Positions 11,890-25,633 of a stretch of DNA of 64,000 nucleotides are shown here, piece after piece; positions within the stretch are counted from its first letter, which is position 1; the number at the start of each line of letters is the position of its first letter. The stretch is taken from contig JAHHIM010000001.1 of NCBI GenBank assembly GCA_019358915.1, positions 160,001-224,000 on the forward strand. The letters run 5' to 3'. The notes below the pieces were generated by a model, which saw nothing but the letters and a program-made list of their open reading frames with translations, made no database searches and was not told where the DNA came from. Position numbers and translations under genes: made by a program. This stretch comes from Trichormus sp. ATA11-4-KO1 (lineage in GTDB: Bacteria; Cyanobacteriota; Cyanobacteriia; Cyanobacteriales; Nostocaceae).

Positions 11890-14049
11890 ATGAAAAGTCA
11901 CCTTCATCCCAAGAACGACATAACAATCAACCCATCCGGTAACGAATCAATTCGTGACGTGATTGAACGCGTCAGTATGAAGCGCAGACGTTTCATCATG
12001 ACAGCAGTAGGAGCCTCGGCGGTAACTGTATTAGGTGATGTCACTATTGGTGGCATACTCCAAACTGTTGCAGCATCTACTGTTCCAGCTGGACTGGGAT
12101 TTGCTGGTATTGGCTTCGAGAGCGTCGAACCAAATCTACTCAATCCAGCAACAGGAATACTAGAAAAGGATCTTGTTACTGTTCCTCAAGGCTACAAAGC
12201 CCAAGTATTAGTTGCTTGGGGCGATCCCATCATGCCTGGTGCGCCAAACTGGTCATCAGACGCTTCCCAAGATGCGGCGGCACAAGAAAAGCAGTTCGGG
12301 ATGAATGCTGATGGTATGCACTTCTTGCCTATACCGGGACGGAGTTATCACAGACGGACATCAGGATTACCAGTGCCAGTTGAAGGTCGCGCATTTAATA
12401 CTCGTGGGCTACTGTGCGTTAACCATGAGTTTACCCAAGAGCAGTTCCTCCACCCCGAAGGTCTGAACCCAGTCACAATTCAAAAAGTACGTAAATCTCA
12501 GGCTGCTAACGGCGTATCTATCCTAGAGATATCCAAAGACAGATTCGGTAATAACTGGAGTGTTAATCGCAATTCTCGTTTTGGTCGTCGGATCACTGGC
12601 AACACCGAAATGCGAGTAGCTGGGCCTGTGGCAGGTAGCGATTTTGTGAAGTCGAAGAAATTTGACATCACACCCGATGGCTCCTTTGAAATCGGGGTGA
12701 ACGACGGTTACACCGCTTACGGTACAGTTAACAACTGCGCTCACGGTGAAACTCCTTGGGGTACTTATTTAACCTGTGAAGAAAACTGGAATGGCTACTT
12801 CCAAAATGCTACCAGAACTGTAGTTTCAGTTCCTGGGGTAGAAGATGCCGACATTTTGCAAGGACAAAATCGTTACGGTATTCCCACATCAAGTCGCTTC
12901 GGTTGGGCAAGTGTTGATCCACGTTGGGATGCCAGCACTAACCCACTGGAACCACATTTATTTGGTTGGGTAGTAGAGATTGATCCATACGATCCTCAAA
13001 GCAAGCCAGTCAAACGTACTACCCTGGGTCGGTTCAAGCACGAAAGCGCTCAATTTGTGGTTGATGACAACAACCGTCTGGCTTTCTATATGGGTGACGA
13101 CGAGCGTAACGAGTATATCTACAAGTTTGTTTGTTCCAGACCCTTTAATCCCAACGTTCGGGGCGCTAACCGTGATTTACTGGATTACGGTACTTTGTAC
13201 GTTGCTAAGTTCAATGACAATGGTACTGGGGAATGGCTACCTTTGGTCTATGGTCAAGGTGGTCTGACACCAGAAAATGGTTTTAGAAGCCAAGCGGAAG
13301 TGCTGGTTAAAACCAGACAAGCTGCTGACAGAGTAGGCGCAACCATGATGGATCGTCCAGAGTGGACTGCTGTTCGCCCTCGCATCGGTGGATTCAATGA
13401 AATTGAAGTCTATTGTGCGTTAACCAACAACAATCGTCGTGGAACAGAACCAGAATCTGTAAATGAAGCAGATGGTTCCACCATAAGTGGAAGTTCACGT
13501 CCTCCTGTTGATCCTGCTAACCCACGTGAAGATAACCGCTACGGTCACATCATCCGTTGGCGTGAAACAGGACGTAGCGTGGCCGCTACCAGTTTCAACT
13601 GGGATATTTTTGTCGAGTGTGGCGATAAACAAGATCCTGATCCAAATCATGTTGGCAATATCAACGGTGATGACCTCAGTTCACCTGATGGCCTTTGGTT
13701 CGACGACTTTGGTCGCCTCTGGATTCAAACTGACCATGCTGGTACTGGTACTGGTGATGTCGTCAATATTGGTAGTAACACCATGTCATGTGCTAACCCC
13801 AATAATCCTAGAGAAATTAAACGCTTCCTCACCAGTCCAACAGACTGTGAGGTAACCGGTGTGATCACTACACCAGATGGTAGAGCGATGTTCATTAATA
13901 TCCAGCACCCAGGTTCTCGTGGAAGTACTGAGAATCCTACTAGCAGAAGCAACTGGCCACACAGCCAAGGTTATGGCCCTGCTGGTCGTCCACGTTCTGC
14001 AACGGTGGTAATTACCCGTGATAACGGTGGCATTATTGGCGCTATCTAA
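11890..14049 (+). CDS. phoX: PhoX-family alkaline phosphatase (DUF839), Tat-exported, copy 1
   Basis: Tat-like KRRRFI; LCVNHE, NNCAHG.TPWGTYLTCEEN, GRFKHE, MDRPE, SPDGL, CEVTG and NIQHPG motifs. Confidence 0.93.
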   Translation: MKSHLHPKNDITINPSGNESIRDVIERVSMKRRRFIMTAVGASAVTVLGDVTIGGILQTVAASTVPAGLGFAGIGFESVEPNLLNPATGILEKDLVTVPQGYKAQVLVAWGDPIMPGAPNWSSDASQDAAAQEKQFGMNADGMHFLPIPGRSYHRRTSGLPVPVEGRAFNTRGLLCVNHEFTQEQFLHPEGLNPVTIQKVRKSQAANGVSILEISKDRFGNNWSVNRNSRFGRRITGNTEMRVAGPVAGSDFVKSKKFDITPDGSFEIGVNDGYTAYGTVNNCAHGETPWGTYLTCEENWNGYFQNATRTVVSVPGVEDADILQGQNRYGIPTSSRFGWASVDPRWDASTNPLEPHLFGWVVEIDPYDPQSKPVKRTTLGRFKHESAQFVVDDNNRLAFYMGDDERNEYIYKFVCSRPFNPNVRGANRDLLDYGTLYVAKFNDNGTGEWLPLVYGQGGLTPENGFRSQAEVLVKTRQAADRVGATMMDRPEWTAVRPRIGGFNEIEVYCALTNNNRRGTEPESVNEADGSTISGSSRPPVDPANPREDNRYGHIIRWRETGRSVAATSFNWDIFVECGDKQDPDPNHVGNINGDDLSSPDGLWFDDFGRLWIQTDHAGTGTGDVVNIGSNTMSCANPNNPREIKRFLTSPTDCEVTGVITTPDGRAMFINIQHPGSRGSTENPTSRSNWPHSQGYGPAGRPRSATVVITRDNGGIIGAI

Positions 14050-14114
14050 ACACAGTTATCAATAAAAGCTTATTAGTTTAGCGCACCTCAATTACTACAA
14101 GGTTAATAACAGCT

Positions 14115-14162
14115 AATCACTTGCTTATTTGCCTATATTTAAGGTCAAAAAAGCAAGTGATT
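14115..14162 (+). terminator. Stem-loop after phoX1
   Basis: AATCACTTGCTT...AAGCAAGTGATT inverted repeat followed by a T-rich tract. Confidence 0.5.
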
Positions 14163-14213
14163 TATTAGCAAAATTAATCCTATAGCAATACATAAATTTA
14201 TGAATTAATTTAT

Positions 14214-14243
14214 GTTAATCGCTACATAACCTAACGTTAATAC
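14214..14243 (+). promoter_or_regulatory. Pho-box-like site upstream of phoX2
   Basis: GTTAATCG-cta-CATAACCT-aac-GTTAATAC aligns position for position with the phoX1 box, including the downstream TAAATTGA. Confidence 0.65.
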
Positions 14244-14303
14244 TACTTATCTAAATTGAGTTCGCCATGATAATTTTTGTACTTTTACCAGTATTTGGAC
14301 GAG

Positions 14304-14322
14304 CTTAACCTGTTATTAACCA
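14304..14322 (+). promoter_or_regulatory. Second Pho-box-like site upstream of phoX2
   Basis: CTTAACCT-gtt-ATTAACCA: one exact consensus unit plus one near-consensus unit at 11-bp spacing. Confidence 0.65.
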
Positions 14323-14435
14323 CGGGTTATTATCCCTGAAAAACTGGCAAATAATTAAGTTTTTTATTTACCAAGTTACTCATCGCAATTGATAACCGAA
14401 CAGCAAATTTCTCAACCTTAAATGGAGAACCGAGA

Positions 14436-16601
14436 ATGAAAGGTCTTTCTCACCCTAAGAATAATGTAACGCTTAACCCATCAAGTAACGAGTCAATCCG
14501 TGACGTGATCGGGCGTGTGAGTATGAAGCGTAGACGCTTCATCATGACGGCTGTAGGTGCTTCAGCGCTAACCGTATTAGGTGATGTTACCATCGGTGGC
14601 TTGCTGCAAACTGTTGCGGCTTCTCCAGTTCCCCCTGGACTTGGATTTGCTGGCATTGGCTTTAAGAGCATCCCACCAAATCTGTTGAACCCAGCTACGG
14701 GACTCCTAGAAAAAGACCTAGTTAGTGTTCCTGAAGGTTACAAAGCAGAAGTCATCCTGGCTTGGGGTGACCCCATCATGCCCGGTGCGCCAAACTGGTC
14801 ACCGGATGCTACCCAAGATGCCGCAGCCCAAGAAAAGCAAGCTGGGATGCACCATGATGGAATGCACTTCTTCCCACTACCAGGGCGGCAGTTTTTAAGC
14901 CGTCCATTAGCTTCAGCATCTGCTTATCAAGGGCAGACATATCGTCGGGGGCTACTGTGCGTTAACCATGAATACACTCATGAAGAAATCCTTCATGGGT
15001 CTGAGGGTTTAACCCCAGTAACGATTCAAAAAGTACGTAAATCTCAAGCTGCCCACGGTGTATCGATTGCAGAAATAGCTAGGGCGAGATTTGGCAATAG
15101 CTGGAGTGTAGATCGCAATTCCCGTTATGGTCGCCGCATCACAGGTAATACAGAGATGCGAGTTGCTGGGCCTGTTGCTGGTAGTGCCTTTGTGAAGTCG
15201 AAGAAGTTTGACATTACACCCAACGGCTCAATTGAAATTGGTGTAAACGACGGCTACACCGCTTACGGTACGCTTAACAACTGCGCCCACGGCGTAACTC
15301 CTTGGGGTACTTACCTTACCTGTGAAGAAAACTGGAACGGCTACTTTGGCAAAAACAATCCTTCAGAAGGTGTAGCCTCGGTTCCAGGGGTTGAAGAAGC
15401 CGATATTGTAGCATTACAGAATCGCTACGGTATAACCAGCACAGGTTTTAACTATCGTTGGCATGAAGCTGACCCACGCTTTGATGCTAACACCAACCCT
15501 CTGGAGCCGCATTTGTTCGGTTGGGTGGTTGAGATTGATCCCTACAATCCTCAAAGCAAACCAGTCAAACGCACGACTATGGGTCGGTTTAAGCATGAAA
15601 GCGCACAATTTGTTGTGGATGATAACAATCGTTTAGCTTTCTATATGGGTGACGACGAACGTAACGAGTATATCTACAAGTTCGTTTGCTCCAGATCCTT
15701 CAATCCCAAGATTCGTGGTGCTAACCGTGACTTGTTGGATGACGGTATTTTGTACGTTGCTAAGTTCAGCGACAACGGGACTGGTGAGTGGATTCCCCTA
15801 GTTTATGGTCAGCGTGGTTTGACACCAGAAAACGGTTTCAGCAGCCAAGCTGAAGTTTTGGTCAAAACTAGAATGGCTGCTGATAGAGTAGGCGCAACCA
15901 TGATGGATCGTCCCGAATGGACTGCTGTGCGTCCTCGGATTGGTGGATTCAAGGAAATAGAGGTCTACTGTACGTTGACAAACAACAATCGTCGCGGAAC
16001 GGGGGAAACCTCTGTGAATCAGCCAGATGGCTCAACACGTTCTGGTAGTGCGCGTCCTCCTGTGGATGCGGCTAACCCACGTCCTGATAACCGTTATGGT
16101 CACATCATCCGTTGGCGAGAAGATGGACAAAGAGTTACAGCTACTACTTTCACATGGGATATTTTTGTTGAGTGCGGTGATAGTCAGAGAACTGAACCAA
16201 ATCTTGTGGGTAACATTAATGGTGACGACCTCAGTTCACCAGATGGTCTCTGGTTTGACGACTTCGGCCGCCTCTGGATTCAGACCGACCACTCGGGCAA
16301 TGGTCTTGGTGATTTGGTAAACATCGGTAGCAACACCATGTCGTGTGCGAACCCCAATGATCCCAGAGAAGTGAAGCGCTTTTTAACTAGTCCCACTAAC
16401 TGTGAAGTAACGGGTGTCATCACCACACCAGATGGTAGAACGATGTTTATCAACATTCAGCACCCAGGCGAAGGTGCGCCCGCCTCAAACCCCACCCAAT
16501 CCAGCAACTGGCCAAGCACTCAAGGCTATGGCCCATCTGGTCGCCCACGTTCTGCAACAGTTGTGATCACCCGCAATGATGGTGGCATTATTGGTGCTTA
16601 A
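14436..16601 (+). CDS. phoX: PhoX-family alkaline phosphatase, Tat-exported, copy 2
   Basis: Same motifs as copy 1, and colinear and highly similar to it over the full length. Confidence 0.93.
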   Translation: MKGLSHPKNNVTLNPSSNESIRDVIGRVSMKRRRFIMTAVGASALTVLGDVTIGGLLQTVAASPVPPGLGFAGIGFKSIPPNLLNPATGLLEKDLVSVPEGYKAEVILAWGDPIMPGAPNWSPDATQDAAAQEKQAGMHHDGMHFFPLPGRQFLSRPLASASAYQGQTYRRGLLCVNHEYTHEEILHGSEGLTPVTIQKVRKSQAAHGVSIAEIARARFGNSWSVDRNSRYGRRITGNTEMRVAGPVAGSAFVKSKKFDITPNGSIEIGVNDGYTAYGTLNNCAHGVTPWGTYLTCEENWNGYFGKNNPSEGVASVPGVEEADIVALQNRYGITSTGFNYRWHEADPRFDANTNPLEPHLFGWVVEIDPYNPQSKPVKRTTMGRFKHESAQFVVDDNNRLAFYMGDDERNEYIYKFVCSRSFNPKIRGANRDLLDDGILYVAKFSDNGTGEWIPLVYGQRGLTPENGFSSQAEVLVKTRMAADRVGATMMDRPEWTAVRPRIGGFKEIEVYCTLTNNNRRGTGETSVNQPDGSTRSGSARPPVDAANPRPDNRYGHIIRWREDGQRVTATTFTWDIFVECGDSQRTEPNLVGNINGDDLSSPDGLWFDDFGRLWIQTDHSGNGLGDLVNIGSNTMSCANPNDPREVKRFLTSPTNCEVTGVITTPDGRTMFINIQHPGEGAPASNPTQSSNWPSTQGYGPSGRPRSATVVITRNDGGIIGA

Positions 16602-16651
16602 ATCCTCACCATTATCTGTGTTGAAAGTCAATAATTAAGGCGATTTATTTC

Positions 16652-16688
16652 AGATCCCCTACTTCTTGAAGAAGTAGGGGATCTTTTT
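16652..16688 (+). terminator. Intrinsic terminator-like hairpin after phoX2
   Basis: AGATCCCCTACTTCTT-g-AAGAAGTAGGGGATCT followed by TTTT. Confidence 0.65.
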
Positions 16689-16714
16689 ATTCGTGTTGGA
16701 AGTTTTTTCTGTAT

Positions 16715-16744
16715 CTTATTCTGTATTTTACCTTTTCTTAAATT
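16715..16744 (+). promoter_or_regulatory. Pho-box-like site upstream of the CDF transporter
   Basis: CTTATTCT-gta-TTTTACCT-ttt-CTTAAATT at 11-bp period, with a CATAAT -10-like hexamer at about 16760. The match is degenerate. Confidence 0.45.
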
Positions 16745-16996
16745 AACTAGAAAGCGTTTCATAATACTGTTATATGTGTTCTAATGTTCAACCATTCCCA
16801 TATTGAAACTCACTTATCTCCATAAAAGTTCTTGAGTCAGTTTCTCAAAATTATGGGATAGAAAATCTAACCCATCGCTGCATCAAAGATATTCTTTGAT
16901 GGGCAATATTTCCATACTCTATGGAAAAATTCAGCTTGCCGTAAATTATTGTGTTGGTGAGTACTTTTTAAGCTGCTACTAATAAGGTTTTGGATA

Positions 16997-17977
16997 ATGC
17001 TTTCACTACAATGGTGTAAATGTGGCTGTGCAGATGATTCTCAAAAAATGCTGCAAAGTCAGCAAAAAACCAAGATTTTATGGTTAACAACAAGCTTACT
17101 GACTTGTTTCTTTGTCGCTGAATGGGGCGTAGGTCTGTGGAGCCAAAGTTTATCTTTACAGGCGGATGCGGGACACATGTTTGCCGATATTACAGCTTTG
17201 GTAATATCACTATTTGCTAGTTACTTAGCACAGCAACCAGCAAAAGGTAAGGCAACATTTGGGCATCAGCGAATTGAAGTTTTAGCAGCTTTGTTAAATG
17301 GATTGAGTTTACTAGCGATCGCCACTTTTATCACCTACGAAGCCATCCAACGCTGGCAACATCCAGGGACAATTTTAGGCTTACCAATGTTGCTAGTGGC
17401 AATTACTGGTTTAATTGTCAATTTGCTGAACATTAGTCTATTGCATCCCCATTCTCACAATGATTTAAATTTGCAGGGAGCCTTGTTACATATTATCGCT
17501 GATACTGCTAGTTCGGTGGGTGTAATTATTGCAGCTGTGATGATTCATCTATGGAATTGGTGGTGGGCTGATGTCGCCATTAGTTTAGTAGTGGCAACTT
17601 TTACAGGTGTGAGTGCATTACCTTTAGTCCAAGAAAGTATCAAGATTTTTTTGGAATATGCACCCAAATCAATTGACCCCGTGGAAGTAGAAAAATTAAT
17701 TAAATCTTTTCCCGGAGTTGTACAAGTAGAAAAACTGCATATCTGGACAATTAGCACCAATAAAGTCATGCTTTGTGCCAATTTGACTGTGGAATGTGCC
17801 ACCAATCAGGAACGCGATCGCCTACTTCATAAATTGCAAACTCACCTCCAAGAAACCTTTAGGATTACCGAAATAACTTTGCAATTAGCCAGTCCGCAAA
17901 AACCTGGCAAAATCTCTCTGCATACGTTGTTTAACCAAGATTTATCTCTGATGTTAGCTGTCAATAAATCAAAGTAA
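16997..17977 (+). CDS. Cation diffusion facilitator (ZitB/CzcD-like Zn/Co/Cd exporter)
   Basis: SLSLQADAGHMFAD (HxxxD), TFGHQRIE, His-rich loop HPHSH, LHIIAD, and a C-terminal domain with LHIW. Confidence 0.92.
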   Translation: MLSLQWCKCGCADDSQKMLQSQQKTKILWLTTSLLTCFFVAEWGVGLWSQSLSLQADAGHMFADITALVISLFASYLAQQPAKGKATFGHQRIEVLAALLNGLSLLAIATFITYEAIQRWQHPGTILGLPMLLVAITGLIVNLLNISLLHPHSHNDLNLQGALLHIIADTASSVGVIIAAVMIHLWNWWWADVAISLVVATFTGVSALPLVQESIKIFLEYAPKSIDPVEVEKLIKSFPGVVQVEKLHIWTISTNKVMLCANLTVECATNQERDRLLHKLQTHLQETFRITEITLQLASPQKPGKISLHTLFNQDLSLMLAVNKSK

Positions 17978-17985
17978 ATATCAAC

Positions 17986-18082
17986 AGGACTTACGCACAG
18001 GTAATGGGAAAACGTTCGCATAGCGTCTCGAAGAGAAGTACACGAAGAAATAAGAGTTTGAGAGAGTTTTTGCGTAGGTCCT
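17986..18082. mobile_element. MITE-like element with a nested small repeat
   Basis: TIRs AGGACTTACGCA / TGCGTAGGTCCT. The internal GTTCGCATAGCGTCTCGAAGAGA recurs in reverse complement at about 23160-23183. Confidence 0.6.
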
Positions 18083-18196
18083 AATCAATTTTAAATTCAA
18101 ATTTACACATAATGCTTATTGGCTTTTTTAAATAGTCAAAGCATAACATCACCAATTTATCAATTGGTTGCTACTTACTACGAGGTCTCTTAATCG

Positions 18197-20308
18197 ATGA
18201 AAGATATTTCCGGATTCGGGTCTGTTTGGACTCGATGGCAAACAGCAGGGGTAGTACTGCTACTAGTGTTACTCTGCTGGCTGGTGACTACAGTCCCGGC
18301 TCGTTCCCAGTCCTTGGGGGGCGCAGAGGTGAGAATTTGGCCGACCAATAATTCCACTCTACTGGTAGACCAACGTTTTGATTTACGGGTAGAAAGTTTA
18401 TTCCCGGCTGAATCTGGTCAGGAGCCTTCCTTGACTTCTATTAGAATTAATGGAGTAGACTTCACCAATTCTTTTAGAGAAGGTATCAACCAACAGCTGC
18501 AATTGCCTGGTGGTGAACTGGAAGTTGGTAAGCCATTCGAGTCAACACTCTTTGGTCAGACACTGCGGAACTACTCATTTGATAGCCCCGGTGTTTACGA
18601 CGTAGAGGCCAGGGTAAATATTGATGGTAAAGACTTTGTTGCCCGTAACACTTACAAAGTGCAACGGTTTCAAACCTCCGGCAACCTCAATCGGATTATT
18701 TTCTATGTCGGTGATGGTATGGGGGTTCCTGTGCGGACTGCTGCACGCATCATGGAGTATGGCGTGCGTGATGGTCAGCCTGGTGGTCGCCTGCAAATTG
18801 AGCAGATGCCAGAACTGGGCTTAATGTCTACCCATTCTTTGAATAGCATTATTCCCGATTCTGCTAACACTGCTGCTGCTTGGGCTTCGGGAACTAAAAC
18901 CATCAATAATGCAATGAACGCCTTCCCAGATAATACACCAGGGAATCCTTTCGATAATCCCCGCATTGAAACCCTGCCGCAGTACATGAAGCGGAAGTAC
19001 AACTGGGGAATTGGCTTAGTTACCACTGCGTTTACTACCGATGCGACACCAGCAGCTTTTGGTACTAACATTATCGCTCGTGGGCAGAATCCAGCGATCG
19101 CTCAAACATATTTGGACTTTTTTAATGATGAGTATACCCTACCAGCCACTGGTTACCAAAGTTGGCAAGAACTAGCCCAACCAGTCGATGTGATTTTAGG
19201 GCCTGGCGCACGGAACTACGTACCCCAAGGACGGATTGCTGAATTTAGAGATACTGCATCTCGTCCAGATGGTCAAGACCTAAGCGAGGTGGCAAAAGGT
19301 TTAGGCTACACCATTGTCAAAGACTTAAGCGAGCTGAATAGCGCTCCTAACAACCGTCCTATTTTAGGGTTATTTTTGGGAGATTTCCGTCAGGGTTCGG
19401 CTTTAGGAGCTTCCAACACTCCGTCTGAACTTGACCTATTAATTGCTAGAGGTCAGGCCACAATTGAAGGACGTGGCGCTAATGAACTCGATCCCCCTAT
19501 CCCACCTGAATTTGTTAACATTCCGACGCTAGCAGAAATGCATCAGAAGGCCATTGCCGTTTTAGATCAATTGCATCCCAATGGCTGGATTATGCTCGTA
19601 GAATCTTCTCAAATTGATAAACTTGCCCATCCCCTTGATACTGACCGCACGCTATACGAAGTTTTGGCACTTGATGAAGCCGTGGGACGCGGACGCGAAT
19701 ATGCTAGACGTTCAGGTAACACACTGTTAGTTGTGACTTCTGACCATGCCCAAGGTCAAACTGTTGGTGGTACCGTAGATAGCGTTGGTATCCGTGAAGG
19801 TCGGGTTGACCTCAGAGATGCTATGCGTTCCTTCGGTGGTGCTGGCTTTACTAACTACGTTGATGCCGATCGCAACGGCTTCCCCGATGATGCAACTCCG
19901 TCCAGTAAATTAGCCATTGGTGTTTCTGCTCGTCCAGTTTTCCGCACTGATTTCTTGACTGACGACCTGAACAGAGCACCAGCCATAGGAAACGATGGTA
20001 CTCAAGTCAATCCTCTACGCGATCCCAATGGACTACTGTTAACTGCTGACTTGCAGCGTTCCACCACAGTTGCTAACCATACTGCTGATGACGTAGCGAT
20101 CGCCACGGAAGGGCCAGGTAGCACATTATTTAATAGTGCGATTGACAACATTGAAATTTTTCAGCGTATGGCGGCGGCGATTTCTGGCGTTCGCGATCGC
20201 AATAATTTAGCTGAGTTATTCAGCGATACCAGACCAACACCACCAGTTCGTCCCGTGCGTCCGGTTCGTCCTGAGCCTCCAGTTCGTCCCGTGCGTCCGG
20301 TTCGTTAA
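18197..20308 (+). CDS. phoA: PhoA-type alkaline phosphatase with N-terminal accessory domain and PVR-repeat tail
   Basis: Sec signal peptide; VGDGMG, catalytic PDSA, DATPAAF, ESSQIDKLAH, TSDH and NHTADDV motifs. Confidence 0.88.
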   Translation: MKDISGFGSVWTRWQTAGVVLLLVLLCWLVTTVPARSQSLGGAEVRIWPTNNSTLLVDQRFDLRVESLFPAESGQEPSLTSIRINGVDFTNSFREGINQQLQLPGGELEVGKPFESTLFGQTLRNYSFDSPGVYDVEARVNIDGKDFVARNTYKVQRFQTSGNLNRIIFYVGDGMGVPVRTAARIMEYGVRDGQPGGRLQIEQMPELGLMSTHSLNSIIPDSANTAAAWASGTKTINNAMNAFPDNTPGNPFDNPRIETLPQYMKRKYNWGIGLVTTAFTTDATPAAFGTNIIARGQNPAIAQTYLDFFNDEYTLPATGYQSWQELAQPVDVILGPGARNYVPQGRIAEFRDTASRPDGQDLSEVAKGLGYTIVKDLSELNSAPNNRPILGLFLGDFRQGSALGASNTPSELDLLIARGQATIEGRGANELDPPIPPEFVNIPTLAEMHQKAIAVLDQLHPNGWIMLVESSQIDKLAHPLDTDRTLYEVLALDEAVGRGREYARRSGNTLLVVTSDHAQGQTVGGTVDSVGIREGRVDLRDAMRSFGGAGFTNYVDADRNGFPDDATPSSKLAIGVSARPVFRTDFLTDDLNRAPAIGNDGTQVNPLRDPNGLLLTADLQRSTTVANHTADDVAIATEGPGSTLFNSAIDNIEIFQRMAAAISGVRDRNNLAELFSDTRPTPPVRPVRPVRPEPPVRPVRPVR

Positions 20309-20470
20309 TCTCAAAATAATTCGTAATTGATAACTCATAATTGCCAGCAGTGGATTTAAGCTCCTACTGATTGAAGATTACTGAAACTTTAATTCAGTAA
20401 GGGTTTGTACCCATTTTTGTAATTACGAATTACGAATTAGTAATTATTCACTAGTTAGTAGGTGCAAAAT

Positions 20471-20920
20471 ATGTTGAGACTGAAACTTCCGCCTAATTTT
20501 TGGAGCTTCCGTTCCAAGCAACTGCGACGATTCCTTGGTGGCTTGTTAGTCATGACCACGGCGATCGCCGCGATCGCGATTCAACAGCCTGCTATGGGTT
20601 TCTGGAACCAACCCCAAGGTGATAGTGTAATTTTCGGTAAACTTGCCGATACCCATCTATGGAATGGTATACCAGGAAAAGACTTGGTGAATAACGCTAA
20701 AGTCACCATCAACACCCTCCCACCCCAAACCACTCGTACTGATGAACAGGGTAACTTCTGGTTCAAAAACTTACCAGACGCTGATTATCTGCTCAAGGTA
20801 AAGTTACCTTACGAATCCAAGAAAGAGTACACCTTTAGAACTCAGGTTCATGGTAAGACAGGTGCATTCTTAGATGTGGCGATGGATGAGGCGCACAACC
20901 TCAAAGAAATCGATTACTAA
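20471..20920 (+). CDS. Secreted small protein with carboxypeptidase-regulatory-like (transthyretin-like) domain
   Basis: Signal peptide; AKVTI...TTRTDEQGNFWFKNLPDADYLLKV matches the TDxxGxFxFxxLxxGxY pattern. Confidence 0.7.
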   Translation: MLRLKLPPNFWSFRSKQLRRFLGGLLVMTTAIAAIAIQQPAMGFWNQPQGDSVIFGKLADTHLWNGIPGKDLVNNAKVTINTLPPQTTRTDEQGNFWFKNLPDADYLLKVKLPYESKKEYTFRTQVHGKTGAFLDVAMDEAHNLKEIDY

Positions 20921-20934
20921 ATGCTTTGAGATGC

Positions 20935-20966
20935 AATTAGAGTAGGCGATCACGCTTACTCTAATT
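20935..20966 (+). terminator. Hairpin after the phoA operon
   Basis: AATTAGAGTAGGCG-atca-CGCTTACTCTAATT, followed by a T-rich tract. Confidence 0.55.
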
Positions 20967-20978
20967 CATTTCTTTAAT

Positions 20979-21050
20979 TAACGTGAATTTGATGAACCTG
21001 ACCCCAACCCCTCTCCGACACGGAGAGAGGCAAAAATCTCCCTGGTTTTC
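20979..21050 (-). mobile_element. Truncated copy of the 28141-28342 MITE (one end only)
   Basis: Near-identical to the reverse complement of about 28271-28342 (TAACGTGAATTtGATGAACCT...CTCTCCGACACGGAGAG...AAAATCTCCCT). Confidence 0.75.
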
Positions 21051-21127
21051 AATGAAGTCAAATGCACCCTAATTTATCGTATCTGGGACTTGCATAGATG
21101 GAAATAAAAACCAAAAATTTCTCTTTT

Positions 21128-21146
21128 ATTAATCTTTACTTAACCT
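21128..21146 (+). promoter_or_regulatory. Pho-box-like site in the long intergenic region
   Basis: ATTAATCT-tta-CTTAACCT-aaa, containing one exact consensus unit. Confidence 0.55.
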
Positions 21147-22108
21147 AAATTATTCACAGTGGATGGGAAAGTTAAATTAGTTTAATCAAATTAACTCAAA
21201 AATTAATACATACGTTTGCTTACTTATTTGGAAATAATAATTAATATTTACAACCTTAATTAAAATTTTATTAGTTTTTCTTGATTGTATTGAAGTTTAC
21301 TCGAATATTTTTAATCTTTATAAATCACACACAGTTAATCTAACTATTATTTTGTTGAATCTAATACGAAAAATCGCCCTAATACCCTAAATTCGCAAGA
21401 GATAACTAACTGATTTTCCACCAATGAAAAGGATTTTGGACTTTTAAATAAGTACTCAGATAGAATTAATTACACACATTATTTTCCTATTCTCTGTTTC
21501 CATAAACGAATTTAATTTTGCCCAACTGCTTATATTGACTTTAATCAAGTAACTCTATAGATAAAGATTACCGTCTCTCAGATAAAATATCTAAAGTTAA
21601 GCTATTTTTAGCTAATTTATATTAAATAGTTTAAACATAACTACTAAAAAGTAAATTTTAAACCCCTTGTCGTATAAGGGTTTGATGTTTTTGATATCAT
21701 TTTTTTTCTTTCATTTATTGTGGGTGTGTAATCGCGCAAAGAGCGATTATATCTTGCACCAGCAGCAAAAACCGCCTGATGTTAGAAACATAGGGCTGCA
21801 AATCAAAGGTTTTTTTAGAGGACTAAATCTCTGGGCTATTAGCCAAAAAACAAATTTCTTGGCGGAAGTTTGGGCAAGTGCAATATTAAAGCTAAGTAAT
21901 TTATAACTAACAACACCAATCTAGTGAATTTTTTATTTAAATTTCAAAAAAAAATGAAATGTTTACTTTATTTTCATTTTAAAATAAGGTTAAATGCAGT
22001 TAGTTGATTGCTGGAATAAGTTGTTATTTTCAATTGATTTTTAACTACTTGACTAAGTAATTGCTTTTAAGTAATATAACTCTGTCATAAGATTTACGCA
22101 CTGCAAGT

Positions 22109-22147
22109 TTTAACCGAAACTTAACCTAAATTGTGCTTAAGTATAAT
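22109..22147 (+). promoter_or_regulatory. Pho box plus -10 element upstream of the 140-aa secreted protein
   Basis: TTTAACCG-aaa-CTTAACCT-aaa followed by TATAAT at 22142-22147. Confidence 0.7.
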
Positions 22148-22316
22148 GTTATTTCACTTCAGATACTGAAGAGTAACCACACCTTAAACTCAACAAACTC
22201 TGTTGACTAAATCACTTGCTCTAACAGTAACTGAGATAGTGAAATTGCTCACAGCACAGATGCAAGATGCGTACATCACAAGTACATTGAAGTTTAAATA
22301 ACAGGAATAGAAGTCG

Positions 22317-22739
22317 ATGAAATTCAACAAAAAAGTAGCGATCGCGTTAGTTGCAGTTTCTGCTAGTGTATTTGGCTTCGGTTCTGTAGCCTCTGCTGGT
22401 GAAGGCGGCGCGGCTGGAGCTGTAGCAGCTACACTTGACGCTAATGGTTTGGTAACTGAACTAGCTGCTGCTGGTGCTGTTGGTAAAAATGATGCAGCTG
22501 CTGTAGCTACCGGTAACTTTGGTATTGTCTCAGCTTCTGCTTTGGGTAGCGCTGGTGTAATCGAATTACTCAGTGATAACGGATTTTATTCCTTCTCAGA
22601 CTCCGATTTCTCTGAAAGCGAAGTTTACAACAACGTTACTATCTCAGGTAGCGCAGATACTGCTTTAGGAGAAAGCCAAGCTAACTCTATTGCTACCTTT
22701 ACCGAAACTCCTATCGGATCTATTGAAACCGGATTCTAA
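22317..22739 (+). CDS. Secreted Gly/Ala/Ser-rich acidic small protein, function unknown
   Basis: Sec signal MKFNKK-hydrophobic-ASA, giving a mature N-terminus GEGGAAGA. AGGA RBS. Codons are strongly biased to GCT/GGT/TCT/ACT/AAC/TTC. Confidence 0.85.
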   Translation: MKFNKKVAIALVAVSASVFGFGSVASAGEGGAAGAVAATLDANGLVTELAAAGAVGKNDAAAVATGNFGIVSASALGSAGVIELLSDNGFYSFSDSDFSESEVYNNVTISGSADTALGESQANSIATFTETPIGSIETGF

Positions 22740-22866
22740 TTTGTCAATAACTTACAAGTTCAAGAAGATGATTAGGGCTTCAAGAATGTAAACCCATTAA
22801 TATCAGGATTCAGACTGATAAAGGGCTAAAATTCTATCTACCCTAAAATCTTGAGTGTTTATCTGT

Positions 22867-22893
22867 TAGAGACACGATTGCCGCGTGTCTCTA
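22867..22893. repeat. Palindromic hairpin between the small secreted gene and the beta-barrel gene
   Basis: TAGAGACACG-attgccg-CGTGTCTCTA. Confidence 0.6.
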
Positions 22894-23021
22894 GCTTATT
22901 ATATCAATGAAAAAAATTTATCAACAGGCTAAACGTCAAATAATAGCAATAGCACGTTAATACGATTCTCTACATAAGAAAAATTCCTAACTTTTAACAG
23001 TAAATTTTGAATCCTTGTTAA

Positions 23022-23216
23022 GTAAGTAGGCAGTCATAAATCAAATCAGATTAAGCAATACAAAATTATTTAAACTAGTTTTTAGTAAGGGCTTTAGCCC
23101 TTTTTATAAAGCCCTGCGGGCATGGCTGCGCTTACCGCGCAACTTCCCGTTGGTGCAGCCTCTCTGCGAGACACTATGCGAACACTACAAATGTGTACTT
23201 ATTTACGCCGACTTAC
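23022..23216. mobile_element. Degenerate MITE-like element with nested small repeats
   Basis: Ends GTAAGTAGGC... / ...ATTTACGCCGACTTAC resemble the TIRs of 50625-50755. GC-rich inserts at about 23109-23183 sit in an AT-rich background. Confidence 0.45.
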
Positions 23217-23227
23217 AACTATTTATT

Positions 23228-25633
23228 ATGATTCGGCTTAACAAAAACTTAAAGCTTGTATTTGTATTATTGTTTAGCACATCAACAATATTTTTTTCCA
23301 AAACAGCCTGTGCTAGGATACAAGAAAATACAACAAAATTAAATAATTCAAATAGTGCTAGTAAATTAGAATTTTCAAAAACTTCTGAAAAAAAGAATAA
23401 TTCTTTACTAATTGCTGACCTAGAACCTTTAGATATTTCGCCAGAATCAGAAATAGCACCCCTAGCTTATGTTCTGGATGATATCGAAAACACAAAGGTG
23501 GCAGATTTAGTACAAAAGAATATAAAATTTAAGTCTTGTACTCCTCAAATCATCAAACAAGCTAAATTTACAGAAATATCAGATTTAGAACAACAAAATA
23601 ATCATTCTCAACCTTGTAATCCTCATATAATTCAATTAGCAGAATCTACTACTAAACAAATTGACCCACAACCTCAAGTTGATGAACTTGATATTAACCC
23701 AATATCTCCAATTCAAAAGCCTCCACAAGCAGACAAAAACTATATCATCCCGCCTAGACTTGCTGATAAGAAAAAAATACGCCCACTAACAACTACAATT
23801 CCACTAAATGGTATACTAATCAACCATTTAACTGAAAGACAATTAACTGTAGGTGCAGGCTTTGGTGATAATCAAAATACTACTTTTAATGTGAATGGGA
23901 TTATCAACCTTAATAGCCAAATTAAAGAAAATTTGACAACAAATAATATTTTCACCGTAGACCAAACTGGAGAGTACTTGCAACTACAAACAGTGAGAAA
24001 AAGCAGAGAAATCACTGTTAGTGTCAGAGAACCCCAGACTGTATTGGGTACAGAACTACAATTAAGCTTAACTGCTTCCTGTATTTTGCCGGGTACTAAC
24101 CCAGAAGATATATGCACATATACTCCTGGCTTAGTATCTGCCGATATCAATCCTGATACCTTCACACCAACTCGGATTAACCAAACTAGTAACGTTGGTG
24201 ATGTAGTGACAGCCGAAACATTAGCAGCAATTCAACAGCCTGGTTTTCAATCAGGAGCAAATGGTCAAGAGATTGGGATAGATTTATTATTACCTAATAC
24301 AGGTTCATTTGTGGGTAATAGTACAGGAAACCAACTTTCTATTACTAGAAGAGAAGAAATAGAAAATACACCCACAGCAATTTATTCTAGAATTAGGCAA
24401 ATTGTCAAAGTCAACGACCGCGAAGCTGTTTTAGGGCGCACAATACGCGGTTTTGGAATAATTCTCAATGACGATAATACTTTATTAAATACAGCCTTGC
24501 AAATAGGATATAATTTGTTTCCAGATGTTGAACCTAGTATTGCAGGCTCATCGAATCGAGTTAACTCAAATGTAAACAACAATTTGTTTTTAGCTGCGAA
24601 TAATATCCGGCTACCTGCTAATAGTTTTACTGCTTATTATGGAGGAATCGGACGCGCGCAAAGTGTTCCTCCCAAAGCAACAAATTTAAGGCAAGTACCT
24701 GCTGCTAATTTTAATGGTATCTGGCTAGGTGCGTCGCCTGTAATCAAACGTAGTTCTAATATTAATACTCGGTTTGAACAAGTTGGCCCTCCAACAATTG
24801 TATCTGAGGGCGGTGGAGAAGGGGGATTTGACTCTAATATAAGTTTTGTTTCTAATATTAATAATCAAAATTTTTCTACAGCAAATTTGCAAAATTTTCA
24901 TACTCAAGTCTACGTTACAATTTTAAACCAAGAAGTTAATAATGTAACAGCTAGTAGATTTAGGGAAGAAACCAATTATGCACCGCATCTTAGTTTCACT
25001 GGAAATATTACTAGGACAAGCGATGTTTTAAGATATTACACAGGTGTAATAGGTGCAGATGAAATTAAAATTTATGGCGGGGCAGATTTTACCAGAAATA
25101 CTGCAAATGGCTGGACTTTTTCTGGAGGTTTAACGGGTTATATTAATCCAGATGCTGACTACTATAGTCAAGTAATAGGTAGTGTTACTAGACGTATATC
25201 TTTTAGTAGAAATAATAACTTGATGCTATCAACTGCGTTTAATTATGCTTTGGATAGAGAAACTCGTCCCAATGATTTTGTAAATTCACTTACATTCAGA
25301 GCAAGAGTGAATTTAGGTAATGTTTGGTTTGGTTTAACCAACTTTTTTGGAGATATTATACCTGATTCTATTAATAATACTCTGGTAACAAGTTTCGGCA
25401 TTCAAGTTAATAGAAACTTGGCGTTATCAGGCTATTATACTCCTATAAATGAAAATGCCGGACGCTCTGTCTATGGTGCCTCAGCAAGATTTACACTCGG
25501 TAAAAATCAGAATAGCCCAGTACTCAGCTTGTCTTGGAGAAATAATCAGTTTGACAATGGCACAGATATTTTTGGCAATGGATTAGGGACAAGTGAGAAT
25601 GTGTTCAGCGTGTTTTTGCAAGGTAATTTTTGA
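23228..25633 (+). CDS. Large exported protein with predicted C-terminal outer-membrane beta-barrel
   Basis: ATG 23228 is followed by a signal peptide ending ACA and a low-complexity linker. The C-terminal ~230 aa has alternating aromatic/polar strands (GWTFSGGLTGY, LTFRARVNL, YGASARFTL) and ends FSVFLQGNF with a terminal Phe. Confidence 0.75.
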   Translation: MIRLNKNLKLVFVLLFSTSTIFFSKTACARIQENTTKLNNSNSASKLEFSKTSEKKNNSLLIADLEPLDISPESEIAPLAYVLDDIENTKVADLVQKNIKFKSCTPQIIKQAKFTEISDLEQQNNHSQPCNPHIIQLAESTTKQIDPQPQVDELDINPISPIQKPPQADKNYIIPPRLADKKKIRPLTTTIPLNGILINHLTERQLTVGAGFGDNQNTTFNVNGIINLNSQIKENLTTNNIFTVDQTGEYLQLQTVRKSREITVSVREPQTVLGTELQLSLTASCILPGTNPEDICTYTPGLVSADINPDTFTPTRINQTSNVGDVVTAETLAAIQQPGFQSGANGQEIGIDLLLPNTGSFVGNSTGNQLSITRREEIENTPTAIYSRIRQIVKVNDREAVLGRTIRGFGIILNDDNTLLNTALQIGYNLFPDVEPSIAGSSNRVNSNVNNNLFLAANNIRLPANSFTAYYGGIGRAQSVPPKATNLRQVPAANFNGIWLGASPVIKRSSNINTRFEQVGPPTIVSEGGGEGGFDSNISFVSNINNQNFSTANLQNFHTQVYVTILNQEVNNVTASRFREETNYAPHLSFTGNITRTSDVLRYYTGVIGADEIKIYGGADFTRNTANGWTFSGGLTGYINPDADYYSQVIGSVTRRISFSRNNNLMLSTAFNYALDRETRPNDFVNSLTFRARVNLGNVWFGLTNFFGDIIPDSINNTLVTSFGIQVNRNLALSGYYTPINENAGRSVYGASARFTLGKNQNSPVLSLSWRNNQFDNGTDIFGNGLGTSENVFSVFLQGNF

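Follow-up and report, generated by a model that had tools for sequence, protein, structure and literature searches.

We analysed 64,000 nucleotides (nt) of the cyanobacterium Trichormus sp. ATA11-4-KO1 (contig JAHHIM010000001.1, positions 160,001–224,000; this whole stretch is called the window), in which a gene for a small exported protein of 140 amino acids (aa) is followed by a co-oriented gene for an exported protein of 801 aa. A preliminary description, made from the letters of the window, had proposed that the two constitute a phosphate-regulated surface system with an abundant small subunit and a scarce, dedicated outer-membrane β-barrel. Each gene is present as a single copy in the genome. 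The features of the locus are collected in Table 1.

Table 1. Features of the subunit–barrel locus (positions in the window)
Feature	Position	Strand	Remark
Pho box, two half-sites with an 11-bp period	22109–22127	+	likely SphR site replacing the −35 element
−10 element TATAAT	22142–22147	+	14 nt past the Pho box
Small exported protein, 140 aa (leader 1–27, mature chain 113 aa)	22317–22739	+	predicted all-β; proposed major fibre subunit
12-bp hairpin with T-rich tail	22865–22895	+	likely partial terminator or RNA stabiliser
Exported 801-aa protein ending in Phe	23228–25633	+	proposed platform for export and assembly
First long outer extension of the 801-aa protein, residues ~258–384	23999–24379	+	invariant Cys285 and Cys296 at its far end
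Second long outer hairpin of the 801-aa protein, residues ~503–585	24734–24982	+	conserved GEGG (24815–24826) towards its tip

The small protein and the predicted barrel

The Sec-type leader of the small protein was assigned by eye. Gly, Ala and Ser make up 45% of the mature chain, which contains 14 Asp or Glu residues versus a single Lys or Arg and no Cys. On a codon indicator calculated for ~4,000 crude open reading frames (ORFs) of the genome, the small gene stands at the 99th percentile and the large gene at the 18th, so the composition and the difference in codon usage first described for the two genes were reproduced. The model of the mature subunit (predicted local distance difference test, pLDDT, 83.8) displays the following features: (i) four short strands in an open sheet that lacks a hydrophobic core, (ii) a long hairpin, (iii) an unpaired, extended tail of 29 residues and (iv) no helix. 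In nearly all family members Gly, Ala or Ser occupies every second position of the core, and the inserts are variable; median values for the hairpin are 33 residues, with 6 acidic and 4 aromatic ones, among 42 close relatives, versus 19, 2 and 0 in 86 distant ones. Tandem subunit genes (two to three) are found in some Nostoc and Nodularia loci.

The searches placed the small protein in no named family. Foldseek gave nothing significant (best E 2.2 in the PDB and 0.46 among viral models), and a wide structural search retained only 4 of 48,161 chains, at Z 2.0–2.2, a lack of matches that does not prove a new fold. No significant match was found in Pfam or NCBIfam, none of 128 subunit sequences had a significant Pfam match, and a profile of the 128 found one unrelated PDB sequence up to E 10. 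The closest entries in the ESM Atlas were unnamed cyanobacterial clusters. Two apparent subunit–barrel fusions were encountered: the 875-aa library protein P0322 carries a subunit-like sequence ahead of a barrel, as a natural fusion or a sequencing artefact, and P0148 was rejected as an assembly chimera, its end being the last residues of the barrel on a 661-nt contig.

For the large protein, AlphaFold models a closed barrel over residues 168–801 (pLDDT 90.8; predicted template modelling score 0.77), with strands of up to 43 residues. Residues 30–167 lie outside the model, are unconserved and vary in length among homologues. From the secondary-structure string and alternating hydrophobicity we count about 20 putative membrane strands. 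The model further suggests a third loop that is helical and two outer extensions, of ~125 and ~80 residues; which side is outer was assigned by counting strand parity from the C-terminal Phe backwards. Across 65 divergent homologues, Trp332, Pro419, the tip glycines and the Cys pair are kept. The terminal Phe highlighted in the preliminary description is present here; among the divergent full-length homologues it ends just 23 of 65.

Both ends of the model align to closed barrels in the wide structural search, where the closest folds by Z are OccD2 (16.1; root-mean-square deviation, rmsd, 3.9; 275 aligned), Mdm10 (15.5) and VDAC1 (14.1; 257 of 283 residues). TonB-dependent receptors fill the top Foldseek rows at E 3e-7, but with a template modelling (TM) score of 0.25 and an rmsd of 25, and no Foldseek TM-score exceeds 0.28, with rmsd >20 overall. 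The fold searches return many barrel families at middling scores. By sequence, no significant match was obtained in NCBIfam or in the Pfam set used, which lacks PF28436, and the PDB sequence search was empty; PF28436 is a precomputed Pfam hit on all 120 barrel homologues listed. The automatic labels carried by single homologues (LptD, Wzi, TIGR03016) disagree, and no profile match backs any of them. The nearest ESM Atlas entries are unnamed barrels from other phyla, with DUF6029, at 0.91, as a lead only. The large protein is thus, as first proposed, predicted to be a barrel, and porin families are unmatched by sequence.

A GEGG tetrapeptide, originally noted in both proteins as a possible chance resemblance, forms residues 1–4 of the mature small protein and residues 530–533 of the large one. 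It does recur in both families, EGG being invariant across 109 large homologues and GEGG present in 101 of 128 small homologues. Common origin fared less well: a profile comparison of the two GEGG regions was not significant (best window P ~0.02, uncorrected over 59 windows), and homology between subunit and barrel was rejected at a whole-profile probability of 1.2%. The second small exported protein of the proteobacterial form (L109, 11029–11394) has GEGG in a turn, with a related motif in L108; the motif recalls the barrel tip and the start of the cyanobacterial subunit, and profile tests did not confirm homology.

Co-occurrence and gene neighbours

To follow the pair across genomes we used an even draw of 401 cyanobacterial genomes that includes the source genome. 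The large protein matched 24 of them, 23 strongly, the weak match (G074) covering just 97 residues at E 7e-5. The subunit profile matched 22 genomes from 12 genera, all of them among the 23 with a strong barrel match, and the genes lie within 4 kb of each other in 21 of the 22; in the last (G395) they are on separate contigs. The two genes thus co-occur, although we attach no P value to it because related genomes are not independent. The trait is patchy inside genera (6 of 19 and 1 of 8 genomes), and the subunit gene may lie upstream, downstream, convergent or divergent relative to the barrel gene. When 78 named loci were retained from 113 matches, a small gene was found within 8 kb of the barrel in 64, or in 65 with a wider profile, and 9 of the 13 loci that lack one nearby have less than 3 kb of flank on one side. 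The barrel is split into two ORFs in L084, L086, L096, L101 and L102, through decay or assembly error.

Genes for surface proteins of RTX, DUF4347 or cadherin type lie near 35 of the 78 loci (3 checked by Pfam). An extracytoplasmic function (ECF) sigma gene is adjacent in 9; within L065–L078 (Microcoleus and Tychonema), 8 loci have an ECF-type sigma-70 gene immediately before the small gene, and a DUF4347/RTX gene sits between subunit and barrel. The gene phoX adjoins the pair in 11 of the 78, all from the Nodularia/Anabaena/Anabaenopsis/Umezakia clade, and a phosphatase scaffold was accordingly rejected as a family-wide function.

Outside the cyanobacteria, a barrel profile search of 1.84 billion representatives returned 175 clusters, and the named divergent barrels (7 of 20 looked up) come from Cereibacter sphaeroides, other Rhodobacteraceae and Thiomargarita nelsonii. 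The barrel is found on ten Cereibacter plasmids; on the two examined a 169–175-aa exported protein rich in Ala, Thr and Gly is encoded before it and a 121–123-aa exported protein after it. Among 19 metagenome loci (~10 distinct), 14 have the upstream small gene, the remaining 5 having less than 600 bases upstream, and 16 have the downstream one. The proteobacterial upstream protein scored 23.0 against the cyanobacterial subunit profile in hhalign, versus 12.5 for the best of 40 column shuffles, and intermediate subunit forms are present in L098 and L026. The second small protein scored 13.0 against the upstream one (shuffles up to 10.5), a weak signal, and showed no homology to the cyanobacterial subunit in profile comparison. 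Six small proteins from proteobacteria and two divergent barrels had no significant match in Pfam or NCBIfam, and a plasmid search using the small protein as query gave no match. Before the proteobacterial operon no PhoB box was found in 8 loci, the best candidates having 5–7 mismatches of 14.

Several of these loci have settings of their own. On plasmid p.A of C. sphaeroides EBL0706 (L109, 1–11394) the three-gene operon is divergent from a cellulose synthase (bcsA) cluster, and on plasmid pC of C. sphaeroides 2.4.1 the operon has a BLUF gene, H-NS genes and a gene of the Wzi family in its vicinity. One viral-collection contig (L110, 1–5932) carries a barrel homologue beside primase-like and terminase-like ORFs; this is probably host DNA at a prophage edge.

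Promoter and phosphate response

As the preliminary description had it, a near-consensus Pho box and a TATAAT precede the small gene. The direct repeat deviates at one position from the Pho pattern; a stricter pattern with at most one mismatch picks out just 8 sites in the 5.97-Mb genome, among them this repeat and one that precedes the second phoX. It is likely, judging by its sequence, to be an SphR binding site. The hairpin 3' of the small gene was likewise recovered: none of 200 shuffles is equally stable (z = −3.7), and it likely sets the subunit:barrel ratio. The leader of the small gene, ~160 nt long (22150–22299), is also more stable than shuffles (z = −2.4; 4 of 200), and its fold may stabilise the abundant small-gene mRNA.

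Upstream of the pair, window positions 11890–20920 hold a phosphate-scavenging cluster of two tandem phoX genes, a metal transporter of CDF type, a PhoA-type phosphatase whose N-terminus bears a long extension, and a carboxypeptidase-regulatory-like protein of 152 aa. The orthologues of all of these in Nodularia spumigena are up without phosphate; argG lies downstream. Overlapping Pho-box-like matches with 1–2 mismatches occur at 21124–21152, inside a 1.4-kb gap. The plus strand of the 500 bases past them has no ORF of 35 aa or more, and a second promoter or a small RNA could lie there. Short intergenic elements at 20960–21040 and 23099–23140 have some tens of similar copies in the genome.

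Transcript data are available for N. spumigena CCY9414, whose barrel orthologue is NSP12890 (77% identical over residues 170–801); NSP12900 was assigned as the subunit on the basis of its adjoining accession, a length of 423 nt and identical flanking genes. According to the supplement of PMC9846622, NSP12900 changes without phosphate by log2 +7.31 on day 7 and +5.57 on day 14 (up to ~160-fold), and NSP12890 by +4.64 and +3.63 (up to ~25-fold). Under these conditions NSP12900 accounts for 0.42–0.60% of transcripts and NSP12890 for 0.005–0.0066% (transcripts per million, in percent; PMC9846622), next to 0.40–0.67% for cpcB, 0.23–0.33% for pstS and 0.10–0.34% for phoX in the same samples; argG is unchanged (PMC9846622). 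The subunit:barrel transcript ratio calculated from these values is ~69 and ~97. Induction by phosphate starvation is hence seen for the orthologues of another strain, CCY9414, and the postulated abundant subunit and scarce barrel are apparent in an mRNA ratio of ~70–100:1 in the orthologues. Neither gene is mentioned in the parts of the main text of this stimulon paper (PMC9846622) that were searched.

Of 17 promoters belonging to subunits at least 65% identical to the present one, 16 have a Pho box with at most two mismatches at −198 to −224, versus 0 of 55 more distant ones (11 genes with an unclear start, and short or duplicate upstream regions, were omitted). The single close relative without it, L005, lies ~220 bases behind phoX. 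In most close relatives the box is followed, with much the same spacing, by TATAAT or something near to it; anywhere in the 450 bases upstream, boxes with at most one mismatch occur in 3 distant loci, at scattered positions. The Pho box and the phosphatase neighbours are limited to the Nodularia/Anabaena/Anabaenopsis/Umezakia clade, so phosphate control seems to be a local addition there; a phosphate-regulated system beside phosphatases is what the preliminary description had inferred, and this finds support for the clade but not across the family. The locus resembles the SphS–SphR regulon in its Pho box upstream of a −10 element and in an induction sized like that of pstS and phoX in N. spumigena, and departs from it in a membership restricted to one clade. 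Growth of strain UHCC 0039 on phosphate versus methylphosphonate changed neither gene nor the neighbour BMF81_01241, which we regard as neutral. A 655-nt metatranscriptome contig covers the small gene of a near relative, which indicates presence only and may derive from DNA; the barrel gene had no coverage in that one RNA run.

A proposed fibre export and assembly pathway

In layout the pair works like curli, Fap, chaperone-usher systems and CT pili, and the sequence marks of each were looked for and not found. For curli and Fap the preliminary description had noted the similar layout while recognising no family, and the former stands, with no sequence sign of either. Like the curli system (CsgA, CsgB, CsgG), the pair combines a small, Sec-exported, Gly/Ala/Ser-rich β subunit of ~13 kDa with a dedicated outer-membrane pore, and the second small exported gene of proteobacteria could match the nucleator, as curli are portrayed in parts of PMC13721041. 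Unlike curlin, the subunit is a meander plus hairpin rather than a solenoid and has no curlin repeats; the pore is one 800-aa chain instead of the CsgG nonamer of four-strand protomers, with no CsgG Pfam match; and no CsgE/F/C-like genes recur as neighbours. The curlin family was not among the Pfam matches of the 128 subunits at E 0.1, and the QxGxxN motif occurs in 6 of them. The Fap system (FapC, FapB, FapF) of Pseudomonas is alike in an operon that combines a dedicated barrel with a major and a minor subunit; the present barrel is predicted to be larger than FapF, which has 12 strands, there is no peptidase gene, and the Fap repeat motif is found in 0 of 128 subunits.

Chaperone-usher systems are alike in the single-chain outer-membrane barrel as proposed platform and in a subunit with an unpaired terminal strand. 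The subunit is not predicted as an immunoglobulin fold; no usher match was found in Pfam or NCBIfam, and the 40 neighbour clusters that recur most often around the 78 loci include no chaperone; FimD and PapC align with the barrel at TM ≤0.28 and rmsd >30 in Foldseek and at Z 9.6–11.3 in the wide structural search; and the usher barrel has 24 strands, according to part of PMC13721041. Pfam and NCBIfam gave no POTRA or Omp85 match that would point to Omp85/TpsB proteins (residues 30–167 being unmodelled), and no match to the plug and barrel families of TonB-dependent receptors. The OprD/Occ porins are alike in the barrel wall and unlike in sequence identity (7–10%), in ~300 extra residues within the long outer extensions and in the obligate small partner gene; no OprD or OprB family matched in Pfam, NCBIfam or the PDB sequences. 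The nearest precedent for what the fibre might look like would be, by analogy, the CT pilus of Microcystis aeruginosa (MrpC; PDB 9BTQ), likewise cyanobacterial, with a small, β-hairpin-rich pilin of new fold encoded in a cluster with a porin (PMC12397347, in part). It differs in the absence of a sequence match and of glycosylation genes on our side (no O-GlcNAc transferase or FkbM gene lies beside the pair in the window), in taxonomic spread, and in that Nodularia has separate CT pilin homologues; the orthologue accessions are absent from the homologue table of that paper, in which fold predictions within the CT pilin family are described as unreliable.

Altogether we give a probability of roughly 0.55 to the pair being a dedicated pathway for the export and assembly of a surface fibre. 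This reading is favoured by a subunit transcript about a hundredfold over that of its obligatory barrel, by the open-sheet monomer and by the free tail; a conserved small-residue core under variable inserts further suggests the subunit of a polymer. The co-occurrence of the two genes in changing layouts and the surface-protein genes nearby also count in its favour. The pathway might proceed as follows: (i) phosphate starvation induces both genes, as seen in N. spumigena, presumably through SphR acting on the Pho box; (ii) the intergenic hairpin would hold barrel mRNA at 1–1.5% of subunit mRNA, the ratio seen in the orthologues; (iii) Sec would carry both proteins across the inner membrane and Omp85 would insert the barrel, as we infer from the leaders and the terminal Phe; (iv) once the barrel has passed subunits outward, the open four-strand Ala/Gly/Ser meander, with its long hairpin and unpaired tail, would complete its fold only by mutual packing, giving a fibre, ribbon or tube; and (v) more speculatively, the outer hairpins of the barrel might serve as the first template for polymerisation, a role in which the second small exported protein of proteobacteria may share.

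Complex prediction for barrel and subunit scored 0.48, versus 0.00 for the best control, with contact agreement of at least 57% and partner pLDDT of at least 39 across the runs, and was graded as weak support. Of 157 solved complexes 116 passed the mark, as did 2 of 215 mismatched pairs; only 18 of the 157, but both of these mismatches, did so with scores up to 0.60. A pass of this class is more often wrong than right unless the complex was likely beforehand, and this is one of several points that weigh against the proposed pathway. The subunit was modelled as a monomer, and a transcript ratio is not a protein ratio. OprD-type solute channels are the top structural neighbours of the barrel and, in the model, the helical loop may plug the lumen, so that protein passage through the barrel stays a proposal. 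One genome (G273) has a barrel and no detectable small gene within 18 kb or by profile, and 4 of the 78 loci have long flanks and no small gene nearby, 2 of them with a broken barrel. The link between cyanobacterial and proteobacterial subunits has a 14% hhalign probability and leans on synteny. Finally, the literature found contains no fibre, secretion or protein-level data on the pair.

The barrel could instead be a dedicated exporter whose cargo stays soluble or loosely surface-bound, as a flat β-sheet that binds minerals, metals or ice and does not polymerise. An acidic, Cys-free, flat sheet of small residues would suit such a role and an abundant cargo with a scarce exporter fits it equally well, but we judge it unlikely: the monomer model, coreless and open with its 29-residue tail unpaired, speaks against a soluble protein; the conserved core under variable inserts, the tandem paralogues and the second proteobacterial small gene suit polymer subunits better; and simple export leaves the very long outer hairpins unexplained. 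Still less probable is that the barrel serves as a receptor or solute channel (in this clade for phosphate compounds), the small protein being its lid, plug or periplasmic partner. Its appeal lies in the solute porins, OprD-family and others, that head the structural list, in the TonB-dependent receptors returned by Foldseek and in the strong phosphate induction beside phoX and phoA. An mRNA ratio of 70–100:1 is nevertheless ill-suited to a stoichiometric lid, the Foldseek alignments have low TM-scores and high rmsd, and most lineages have adhesin-type neighbours and neither Pho box nor phosphatase neighbours.

We regard as improbable that the subunit builds a two-dimensional layer, as a surface coat or sheath with the barrel as its anchor, in place of a projecting fibre, even though very high expression, an acidic composition low in Lys and Arg and the dominance of filamentous, sheath-forming genera among the matches would agree with one; an open β-meander of 113 residues is small for a lattice protein, and no SLH or other anchor family appeared among the Pfam and NCBIfam matches. 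That the pair is a distant CT pilus is very improbable. The CT pilin 9btq_A is among the 4 chains retained for the subunit (Z 2.0, rmsd 6.0, 64 aligned), and the CT cluster likewise combines an outer-membrane porin with a pilin and a pilin-like gene (PMC12397347, in part). Yet a Z of 2.0 amounts to background, a search of PDB sequences with the profile of 128 members brought up no CT pilin at E values up to 10, the recurrent neighbours include neither an O-GlcNAc transferase nor an FkbM family, and, as far as the same source goes, CT pilin carries a helix-turn-helix at its C-terminus, whereas the subunit model is helix-free, and the Nodularia homologues of CT pilin are other proteins of 125–178 aa.

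If the fibre pathway is correct, its core job is probably adhesion, aggregation or matrix building; it is speculative that the longer acidic and aromatic hairpin of the phosphate-controlled clade binds cations, minerals or enzymes. The parts of the system are undescribed, its logic is familiar, and the fibre is proposed from genes and models. In the open-access literature searched, no description of the pair was found, and no paper names nsp12890, nsp12900, NSP_RS05775, PF28436, Riv7116_5444, apha_00783 or WP_011331345. We tentatively suggest, at somewhat lower confidence than the pathway itself, a new appendage class: a two- or three-gene pathway of cyanobacteria and proteobacteria in which a ~20-stranded barrel would export a β subunit of new fold and seed its assembly on its own outer hairpins, the GEGG tip mimicking the first strand of the subunit, and which would rank among the strongest phosphate-starvation responses of Nodularia-type bloom formers.

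Few protein-fibre pathways are known on Gram-negative cells, and curli, Fap and CT pili each added a new fold and assembly rule. The strand number of the barrel may be one that was unrepresented among the structures known in 2018; by then, according to part of PMC6340704, no bacterial barrel with 20 strands had been solved. The pathway is small, its trigger is known and its hosts (Nodularia spumigena CCY9414 and Cereibacter sphaeroides 2.4.1) are culturable, which opens it to immediate testing. Under phosphate starvation, the subunit transcript of a Baltic bloom former climbs to the level of phycocyanin, yet the gene is annotated merely as hypothetical; starved filaments may owe their aggregation, their attachment or their gathering of particulate phosphorus to its product.

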